NCBI RefSeq assembly: GCF_051903065.1
Contig: NZ_CP178438.1
From: Escherichia coli
GTDB taxonomy: Bacteria > Pseudomonadota > Gammaproteobacteria > Enterobacterales > Enterobacteriaceae
Length of the DNA stretch: 64,000 bases
Reading direction: 5' to 3' (one strand)
Made by a program: the position numbers. Positions 3,001-6,000 of the stretch are shown here, one piece after another (the first letter of the stretch is position 1; the number at the start of each line of letters is the position of its first letter).

Positions 3001-6000
3001 TGCACATTAGGGCATTTTGAAATGTCGTAATTAAGATAACTAATAAGGTGAATATTAGCAAAACAACTAATGATGTTATTATTTTGTAGCGGCAAGTATT
3101 TTTACTAATAACGAAGAAATATACTCATAAGCAATGCAAGCTTAAAACCAATAATTTAAAAAAGATAAATGTAATAATATTAATGAGTCAATCAATAATA
3201 ATTGAGCATCACGAGACACATCACAGAGGAATATTATGAACAAAGAAACAATTGAAATATTCAATAATAGTGATGAATGGGCAAATCAACTAAAACACGC
3301 ATTATCGAAAGGAGAAAACCTGGCATTACTGCATGGTTTAACTCCTGATATCCTTGATGGAATATATGCATATGCATTCGACTACCATGAAAAGGGTAAT
3401 ATAACGGACGCAGAAATTTATTATAAATTATTGTGCATTTATGCGTTCGAAAATCATGAATATCTAAAAGGTTTTGCATCAGTATGTCAGTCAAAAAAGA
3501 AATATCAACAAGCATATGACCTTTACAAACTAAGTTACAATTACTCCCCATATGATGACTATTCAGTTATTTATCGTATGGGTCAATGTCAAATTGGCGC
3601 AAAAAATATCGATAACGCAATGCAATGTTTCTTTCATATAATTAACAATTGTGAGGATGATAGTGTTAAGAGTAAAGCGCAGGCATATGTCGAACTCTTA
3701 ACCGATAATTCAGAAGATAATGATTAAGCATTACAATCATTTGGTTAAAATTGCTGGTTATAGTGCAGTTAACCACTATAACCAGTACCTCTTATCTTTT
3801 CTTAAACCAACATCTTAAAACAGTTAAGAGCACACTATAAATCATTATTTTTCAATGCGTTAGAGAACAATCTATTTTATCAAAATTGAATAAGGCTATT
3901 TCAGATTACATCACTGAATTCCTAAGATAAATTAGTGAACACAACCATAGATATGTCGAATGTAATTTCCTGTAGCGTTAATGACACATAAATATGAATA
4001 GCCATAATTTCTATTGCTTATGCAGGATGCAAGAAACCAATTTTTTCATAGAGGTTAACTAATGGACTTAGAAAATAAATTCTCATATCATTTTCTTGAG
4101 GGATTAACGCTCACGGAAGATGGAATTCTTACTCAAGGAAATGAGCAAGTTTATATTCCACCGAAAGAGTTAGGTGTATTAATAGTATTACTTGAATCCG
4201 CTGGTCATGTTGTACTGAAAGATATGATCATCGAATCAGTATGGAAAAATATTATTGTTAGTGACGAGTCCCTGACAAGATGTATCTATTCTTTGCGCTG
4301 CATTTTTGAAAAAATTGGCTATGATCGCTGCATAGAAACAATCTACCGGAAAGGTTATCGTTTCAGCGGGCAGGTTTTCAAAACTAAAATTAATGAAGAT
4401 AATACTTCAGACTATTCCATAGCTATATTCCCTTTCACCACTTCATTGAATACACTGGATCCATTAATACTTAATCAGGAATTAGTACAAATCATTTCAA
4501 ATAAAAAAATCGATGGTCTCTATACCTATCCGATGGCTGCGACAAATTTTTGTAATGACCACATATCTCAAAATTCATTCTTGAGCAGATTCAAGCCAGA
4601 TTATTTCGTTACAGGAAGAATAAACCAGAATAATGCAGTGAATACTTTATACATTGAGTTGATCGACGCTAAAAACCTTTTCCTCATCGCCAGTAATCAT
4701 CTCCCTGTTGATGAACTACATAATACATCACAATTTATTATAGATAATATCCTTCAAACGGTACATAAACCAGAACGATCTGTGAGATTAGCTAAGCAGG
4801 ACCAAGGATATAAGAATCATTATTTATCAGATGAAATGTTAGCCGGAAAGAAAGAACTTTACGAGTTCACCCCTGAAAGCATTTACAGGGCCATGACTAT
4901 ATTTGATGGATTACAAAATAAAAGTGATATACAGACGCTAAAAACAGAATGTTATTGCCTTCTAGCGGAATGCCATATGTCTTTGGCACTTCATGGAAAA
5001 AGTGAACTTGAACTTGCTGCTCAAAAAGCATTAGAGCTTTTAGATTATGTATCAAACATAACCAATGTCGATGGAAAAATTTTAGCTATTATGGGACTGA
5101 TAACTGGCCTGTCTGGACAAGCAAAAGTATCTCATATCTTATTTGAACAGGCTAAGATACACTCAACTGATATAGCCTCTCTCTACTACTATAGGGCACT
5201 TGTCAACTTTCATAATGAAAAAATTGAAGAGGCAAGGATTTGTATAGACAAATCACTACAACTCGAACCCAGAAGACGAAAAGCAGTTGTGATAAAAGAA
5301 TGTGTAGATATGTATGTGCCTAACCCGCTCAAAAACAACGGCTTTGTTGAATAAATCAGATTTCGGGTAAGTCTCCCCCGTAGCGGGTTGTGTTTTCAGG
5401 CAATACGCACGCTTTCAGGCATACCTGCTTTCGTCATTTTGTTCAGCGCTCGTACCAGGGCCATAGCCTCTGCAACCTGACCATCGTAGTCACGCAGTGT
5501 CAGTGAACCCCCGAACAGCTGTTTTACCCGGTACATCGCCGTTTCCGCTATCGAGCGACGGTTGTAATCTGTTGTCCATTTCCACCGCGCATTACTCCCG
5601 GTCATTCGCTGATTAGCCACTGCACGGTTACGGTCTGCATATTCACCGGGCCAGTAACCCGCACCTTTTCGGGGAGGGATAAGCGCGCTGATTTTCTTAC
5701 GCCGCAGTTCATCGTGACATAGCCGGGTATCGTAAGCGCCATCGGCGGCGGCTGACCTGATTTTCCGGTGGGTTTGCCGGATTAACCCGGGGAAGGCCTC
5801 TGAGTCCGTAACGTTGTTCAGCGACAGGTCAGCGCAGATGATTTCATGTGTTTTACTGTCAACGGCGAGATGCAGCTTACGCCAGATACGGCGGCGTTCC
5901 TGGCCATGCTTTTTGACTTTCCACTCGCCTTCACCGAAGACCTTCAGCCCGGTGGAATCAATTACCAGGTGTGCGATTTCACCCCGGGTGGGCGTTTTGA

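Follow-up and report, generated by a model that had tools for sequence, protein, structure and literature searches.

A perfect inverted repeat lies between ygeG and ygeH in Escherichia coli, and the question is whether it acts as RNA at the end of the ygeG message, as DNA bound by a regulator, or not at all. We analyzed it within a contiguous stretch of 64,000 nucleotides (the window). An earlier note on this DNA had offered two readings, an intrinsic terminator separating the two genes or an operator for a dimeric regulator. The explanation we favor, at a probability of about 0.5, is that the repeat is a stem-loop that forms and protects the 3' end of ygeG mRNA and is not a canonical intrinsic terminator. 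If the hairpin does end and stabilize the ygeG message, the two genes are transcribed as separate units, and expression of ygeH, whose product is a HilA-like activator of ETT2 secretion genes, rests solely on an H-NS/StpA-silenced promoter of its own. Knowing this would be useful for dissecting ETT2 regulation and for building ygeG and ygeH deletions and reporters, with little import beyond annotation.

The repeat is where it had been placed, but it is longer than the 10 bp first described. Its perfect arms are 12 bp (CTGGTTATAGTG and CACTATAACCAG, separated by the 8-nt spacer CAGTTAAC), and as RNA it makes 14 pairs, 12 of them Watson-Crick plus an outer U-A and a G.U, around an 8-nt loop. On the sense strand, it begins 24 nt past the stop codon of ygeG. 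Its long stem is AT-rich, with G-C pairs at 5 of 14 positions in the window haplotype and 6 of 14 in the K-12 type. The predicted stem-loop makes up 74% of the ensemble, and none of 200 shuffled sequences folded as well. The loop had also been described as centered on a GTTAAC palindrome. However, GTTAAC sits one base off the dyad center, because the loop CAGTTAAC is not self-complementary. It is not conserved either: the loop reads TAG-TAAC in O157 and CA-TTAAC in two metagenome haplotypes. Therefore, GTTAAC has no special standing. Coordinates of the repeat and its surroundings are collected in Table 1.

Table 1. Features of the ygeG-ygeH interval (window coordinates)
Feature	Position	Strand	Basis or remark
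ygeG CDS, 163-aa TPR class-II type III secretion chaperone	3236..3727	+	Stop TAA 3725-3727; ORF list; RefSeq annotation of identical DNA in ECNB21-M121; Pfam PF07720 on homologues
RNA stem-loop, 14 pairs, 8-nt loop	3752..3787	+	MFE -19.6 kcal/mol, z = -7.3
5' arm of perfect 12-bp repeat, CTGGTTATAGTG	3754..3765	.	Repeat search
Spacer/loop CAGTTAAC	3766..3773	.	GTTAAC one base off dyad center, not conserved
3' arm of perfect 12-bp repeat, CACTATAACCAG	3774..3785	.	Repeat search
Pyrimidine tract CCTCTTATCTTTTCTT, imperfect C-interrupted U-tract	3788..3803	+	15/16 pyrimidines
G-depleted C>G stretch, rut-like	3788..3827	+	10 C, 1 G in 40 nt
Best sigma-70-like match upstream of ygeH, ATGACA-16-CATAAT	3981..4008	+	Promoter scan
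ygeH, HilA-family regulator, truncated at 430 codons by IS903B insertion	4062..5354	+	ORF list, RefSeq

This is the only perfect repeat of at least 12 bp with a 3- to 10-nt loop in the 64-kb window, compared with a mean of 0.01 in 100 dinucleotide shuffles. Therefore, at window scale, the hairpin-forming repeat is not a product of chance. When arms of at least 10 bp were allowed, there were six repeat calls at four distinct sites, versus 0.5 expected from shuffles. The other perfect 10- to 11-bp inverted repeats with short loops (20771-20794, 37116-37138, and 61609-61636) are GC-rich, and none has an obvious T-tail.

The location between ygeG and ygeH was confirmed by RefSeq, which puts these genes on either side of the hairpin in identical or near-identical E. 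coli genomes. The only good promoter-like site lies approximately 190 bp downstream of the hairpin, and it is invariant in all eight aligned complete E. coli genomes. In a divergent lineage labeled E. coli (locus L015), its second hexamer is TATAAT. Promoter activity and H-NS binding are reported for a ygeH fragment from -207 to +21 (PMC4210603), which, provided that position +1 is the ygeH start, lies downstream of the hairpin and contains the promoter-like site. SlyA overproduction raised "ygeG" alone (PMC5797941). The promoter fragment, the invariant promoter-like site, and the SlyA result fit with ygeG and ygeH being separate transcription units. The ETT2 island is H-NS bound and silent in K-12 (PMC3661553, PMC4210603, PMC12460168), and this region is an H-NS-bound "promoter island" (PMC3661553). 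In a K-12 hns stpA double mutant, ygeH expression is raised approximately 150-fold (PMC12460168). Across the 28 spacer haplotypes described below, the ygeH-proximal part of the spacer (3900-4062) is far less polymorphic than the ygeG-proximal half and looks like its constrained regulatory part. We found no mention of the hairpin in the literature on ygeG and ygeH.

Two neighboring features of the window are recorded here. An ORF at the ygeF position (2519-3010, + strand, 163 aa) is intact in the window and in O157 and is annotated as frameshifted in K-12-like strains. At the other end, an IS903B copy (5354-6400, with its transposase at 5396-6364 on the - strand) interrupts ygeH after codon 430, so that the truncated gene is now joined to remnants of sctN/eivC, which encodes the type III secretion ATPase (6382-7686), and the ETT2 genes between them are deleted. 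This junction is common to two complete genomes only, 23CRST027 and 23CRST031.

The sequence after the stem had been called a T-rich run, which is correct as a description of its composition. The 15 nt after the stem contain 9 T's, a count reached in 2.4% of local windows of that length. Of the first 16 tail bases (CCTCTTATCTTTTCTT), 15 are pyrimidines, a figure reached by only 0.02% of local windows. However, the tail (CCUCUUAU...) opens with CC, and U's occupy just four of its first eight positions. Its U-tract (CCUCUUAUCUUUUCU) has a position-weighted score of 0.92, which is at background (local mean, 0.89; local 95th percentile, 2.46). A canonical U-tract, of approximately 7 to 9 nt directly after the stem, is absent from the window haplotype. 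On the same score, four of five classic terminators reached 3.1 to 4.7, and rrnB T1, as delimited here, reached 1.4; we relied on the comparison with local background and not on published cut-offs. The tail differs among strains. In some haplotypes CA is replaced by TT right after the stem, which shortens the stem and raises the tail score to 2.45 to 2.92. The BroCaecum55, SCU313, and L041 haplotypes have such more U-rich tails, with scores in this range, at or near the local 95th percentile, and their tails partly resemble a canonical U-tract.

The intrinsic terminator of the earlier note fits in its setting and less well in its tail. The hairpin follows the ygeG stop codon closely and on the sense strand, it is the sole terminator-like match in positions 3000 to 4400, and the ygeH promoter fragment, if numbered from the ygeH start, lies beyond it, but the U-tract is noncanonical. 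(Our loose terminator scan gave 25 matches in 20 kb versus 16 in shuffles.) The region after the stem is also depleted of G. Stretches with no more than one G per 40 nt make up 0.96% of local windows, and 3.6% have a C-minus-G value at least as high as that of the rut-like stretch. Measured across 80 nt, the excess of C over G is modest, and approximately 11% of local windows equal or surpass it. A separate motif, TTCTTAAAYC, lies just past the hairpin position (3796-3806 in the window, approximately 4566-4576 in L015, and approximately 4576-4586 in locus L010). Its conservation extends from E. coli to the divergent lineage and Escherichia albertii, although that of the hairpin does not.

We propose that the repeat works as RNA rather than as DNA. 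When ygeG is transcribed, its 3' untranslated region would fold into the very stable 14-pair stem-loop, which would set and protect the 3' end of ygeG mRNA and limit read-through into the spacer. Transcription of ygeH would then come mostly from its own promoter, which is repressed by H-NS and lies about 190 bp farther downstream. There are two ways in which this might happen. The hairpin could be a weak, noncanonical intrinsic terminator, in which a strong stem is followed by the C-interrupted U-tract CCUCUUAUCUUUUCUU. Alternatively, in an island that is covered by H-NS, Rho might load immediately downstream of the hairpin, where the tract is poor in G and rich in C, and the RNA might then be shortened by 3'-5' exonucleases until they reach the hairpin. 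We lean slightly toward the Rho-dependent protective variant over a weak intrinsic terminator in the window and K-12 haplotypes. For haplotypes with the CA to TT change after the stem, we lean the other way, and the intrinsic mechanism is more plausible.

The case for a 3'-end role combines anatomy (the observed structure, position, strand, tail composition, and distribution) with base rates. Among perfect repeats in K-12 with arms of at least 8 bp and a spacer of no more than 8 nt, 82 to 83% of those found just after stop codons are in predicted intrinsic terminators, and repeats of at least 13 bp are rare in E. coli K-12 (PMC6060812). Rho-dependent 3' ends have stable stem-loops without a U-rich stretch, rut sites immediately downstream, and protection from exonucleases (PMC6061677). 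From these comparisons, we infer that the hairpin forms in vivo and makes or protects 3' ends. No ygeG or ygeH 3' ends are listed in the Term-seq supplement of Adams 2021, as expected for a silenced island, and the small supplementary file of the repeat-map paper has nothing on ygeG 3' ends or the operon. The hairpin is an unannotated instance of an ordinary type of feature.

The locus occurs once per genome in approximately 3,550 of 5,426 complete E. coli genomes, and the exact 61 nt of the window is found in 40 genomes. Our spacer sample consisted of 61 sequences from complete genomes, assemblies, and gut metagenomes, which represent 28 haplotypes; more divergent YgeG clusters yielded only haplotypes that had already been sampled. 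All 28 E. coli haplotypes have a stem of at least 11 pairs, with folding energies from -14.2 to -21.6 kcal/mol. The commonest form, found in most E. coli, is a perfect 14-bp repeat, TGCTGG...CCAGCA, at -21.6 kcal/mol. Variants that change one arm include A to G in the 3' arm, in approximately one-third of genomes, and C to T at the base of the stem. In one strain, AR_0061 (locus L009, 1531-2298; near window position 3770), an IS1 end is inside the hairpin loop, directly after ...TATAGTGCAGT. The element's other end lies against sequence internal to ygeH, and this strain has therefore lost the 3' arm, the spacer, and the beginning of ygeH.

There was no detectable constraint on the stem within E. 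coli. Its columns are as variable as those in the rest of the spacer (6 of 28 versus 53 of 311; Fisher p = 0.6), and the hairpin is situated in the more polymorphic, ygeG-proximal half. Among the 12 distinct hairpin sequences, eight pairs are invariant, three vary on one side only via G.U, and three have unpaired variants (one of the three G.U-varying pairs also has an unpaired variant). These 12 sequences contain no compensatory double change and no excess over shuffles. At three of the six varying stem pairs, the transitions give G.U in + strand RNA and A.C on the other strand. By a manual count over all sampled haplotypes, four of six independent stem transitions preserve pairing. These wobble-type transitions on the + strand are a hint of a role as RNA, and fall well short of significance.

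Gene order is the same in E. albertii (YgeG, 66% identical) and in the divergent lineage represented by loci L014 and L015 (84% identical), and the spacers of E. albertii and L015 can be aligned to the E. coli spacer with no indel at the hairpin. Even so, these syntenic, alignable spacers have no comparable hairpin (z = -0.84 in E. albertii and -0.35 in L014/L015) and no terminator-like site. L015 has kept the 5' arm, which pairs weakly with a different, upstream copy of its complement. Because the spacers of the relatives align without an indel and yet lack the hairpin, the strong stem is specific to E. coli proper and is not an inserted element. Conservation, which the earlier note had suggested as a check, thus extends to every E. 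coli haplotype sampled but not to E. albertii or the divergent lineage, and within E. coli it comes with no sign of constraint. A first scan of species-representative genomes returned nothing, and a second returned only Providencia chaperones (31 to 36% identity), too distant for a comparison of spacers. The ygeG hairpin would be a clean case of a strong 3' hairpin originating within E. coli, the same spacer in E. albertii having none.

The main competitor to a 3'-end role is that there is no selected function. An ancestral, imperfect quasi-palindrome might have been perfected in the E. coli lineage by mutation, for example by intrastrand template switching, and might still be there simply because a species as young as E. 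coli has not had the time for it to decay. We consider this possible but less probable than the 3'-end reading. The gap-free alignment of a spacer that has a strong stem in E. coli alone speaks for it, as does the L015 5' arm pairing with a different upstream complement, which drifting quasi-palindromes would be expected to do. The stem is as polymorphic as its flanks, shows no covariation, and is in the more variable half of the spacer, and imperfect repeats tend to mutate toward perfect ones (PMC6060812). However, a sense-strand position after a stop codon, next to an unusual pyrimidine-rich, G-poor tract, is where functional 3' hairpins sit, and the base rate of terminators among such repeats is high (PMC6060812). 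Also, the finding of no detectable constraint within a single species has little statistical power. The operator proposed in the earlier note did not stand up as well. Here the dyad would be bound by a dimeric regulator, either encoded by ETT2 (YqeH, YgeK, YqeI, YgeH, EtrA, or EivF) or global, to control ygeH or ygeG. Perfect dyad symmetry, mid-arm positions about two helical turns apart, and the many regulators near this H-NS-bound "promoter island" (PMC3661553, PMC4210603) would all suit it. Yet 32 to 36 bp is long for an operator, and the site follows a stop codon by 24 nt and precedes the promoter-like site by about 190 bp. YgeH and YqeI are regulators of the OmpR/ToxR type, whose targets are generally direct repeats. 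Common variants change one arm only and so break the dyad in a large share of strains; the half-site does not recur above chance level, with five matches at no more than one mismatch in 64 kb (the two arms and three others), versus 2.3 expected; and E. albertii and L015 encode the same neighboring regulators without having the dyad. For these reasons, an operator is unsupported, and we regard it as unlikely. Known sites were also compared by eye. A LexA box was rejected, since the repeat has CTG-N9-CAG where LexA has CTG-N10-CAG, and there is no match to the SlyA site TTA-N6-TAA (consensus from PMC5797941). A Fur-box-like GATAATGATTAAGCATTAC at the ygeG stop is in the window haplotype only, most strains having GATAATGGC, and was treated as chance.

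Other readings give the hairpin a regulatory or a mobile past. It could be a read-through switch that couples ygeH to ygeG translation, either because translation of a 32-codon ORF melts the hairpin or because base pairing forms between the ygeH Shine-Dalgarno sequence and the loop plus 3' arm. That ORF (MIKHYNHLVKIAGYSAVNHYNQYLLSFLKPTS; 3720-3818, + strand) starts 5 nt before the ygeG stop codon, overlaps the end of ygeG, and spans the hairpin and its tail, and positions 3767-3779 are complementary at 12 of 13 bases to 4048-4060, the ygeH Shine-Dalgarno region (ATAGAGGTTAACT). However, a 1-nt loop deletion in O157 shifts the ORF to 69 aa, its ATG is lost in two metagenome haplotypes, and it has only four codons in L015. 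With the start codon or frame lost in these, the 32-codon ORF is probably not a gene. (The 69-aa ORF of O157 is annotated by RefSeq as hypothetical protein WP_001062242.1.) The Shine-Dalgarno complementarity is probably chance because it is lost in O157 and L015 and because many other matches of this length occur within the surrounding 1 kb. Such a switch is very unlikely. So, to the same degree, is a recently evolved, E. coli-specific gate in which read-through from ygeG into ygeH is tuned and chaperone expression feeds forward onto YgeH levels, and we give no better chance to its tuning by ribosomes reinitiating on the 32-codon ORF or by the action of Rho or a protein at the pyrimidine tract. 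The least probable of all is derivation from a repetitive or mobile element, as a remnant or a copy (of a REP/BIME-like repeat, a MITE, or an IS end). E. coli genes are commonly followed by extragenic palindromes, and IS elements have struck here, as with the IS1 in the loop of AR_0061. Nevertheless, there is exactly one copy per genome in 3,550 genomes and no second copy in the window, the gap-free alignment to L015 and E. albertii indicates no insertion, and Rfam gave no match at gathering score (the best overlapping models scored 17 to 18 bits against thresholds of 55 to 100, with E-values above 4). A mobile-element origin is effectively refuted.

The 3'-end stem-loop that we favor can be set beside three known systems. 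Like the intrinsic terminators of E. coli, it is a stable, sense-strand stem-loop soon after a stop codon, with a loop of no more than 8 nt and a T-rich stretch following, and it lies between two separately promoted genes. Unlike them, it has a long, AT-rich stem and a U-tract that opens with CC, is broken by C and A, and scores at background, and it is not conserved outside E. coli. H-NS-silenced, horizontally acquired islands are the kind of region where Rho acts, and the ygeG hairpin is in such an island. In this it is like the Rho-dependent protective stem-loops (Dar and Sorek 2018, PMC6061677), with which it also shares a stable stem, the lack of a proper U-stretch, and a C-rich, G-poor tract downstream, although its putative rut site has only a modest C>G bias over 80 nt (approximately the top 11%). 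Finally, it resembles quasi-palindromes perfected by template switching in being a lineage-specific perfect palindrome whose relatives carry imperfect, alignable sequence, and three lineages are too few to reconstruct such an event here. Template switching would account for the origin of the repeat but not for a function, and it is compatible with later use as a 3' hairpin.
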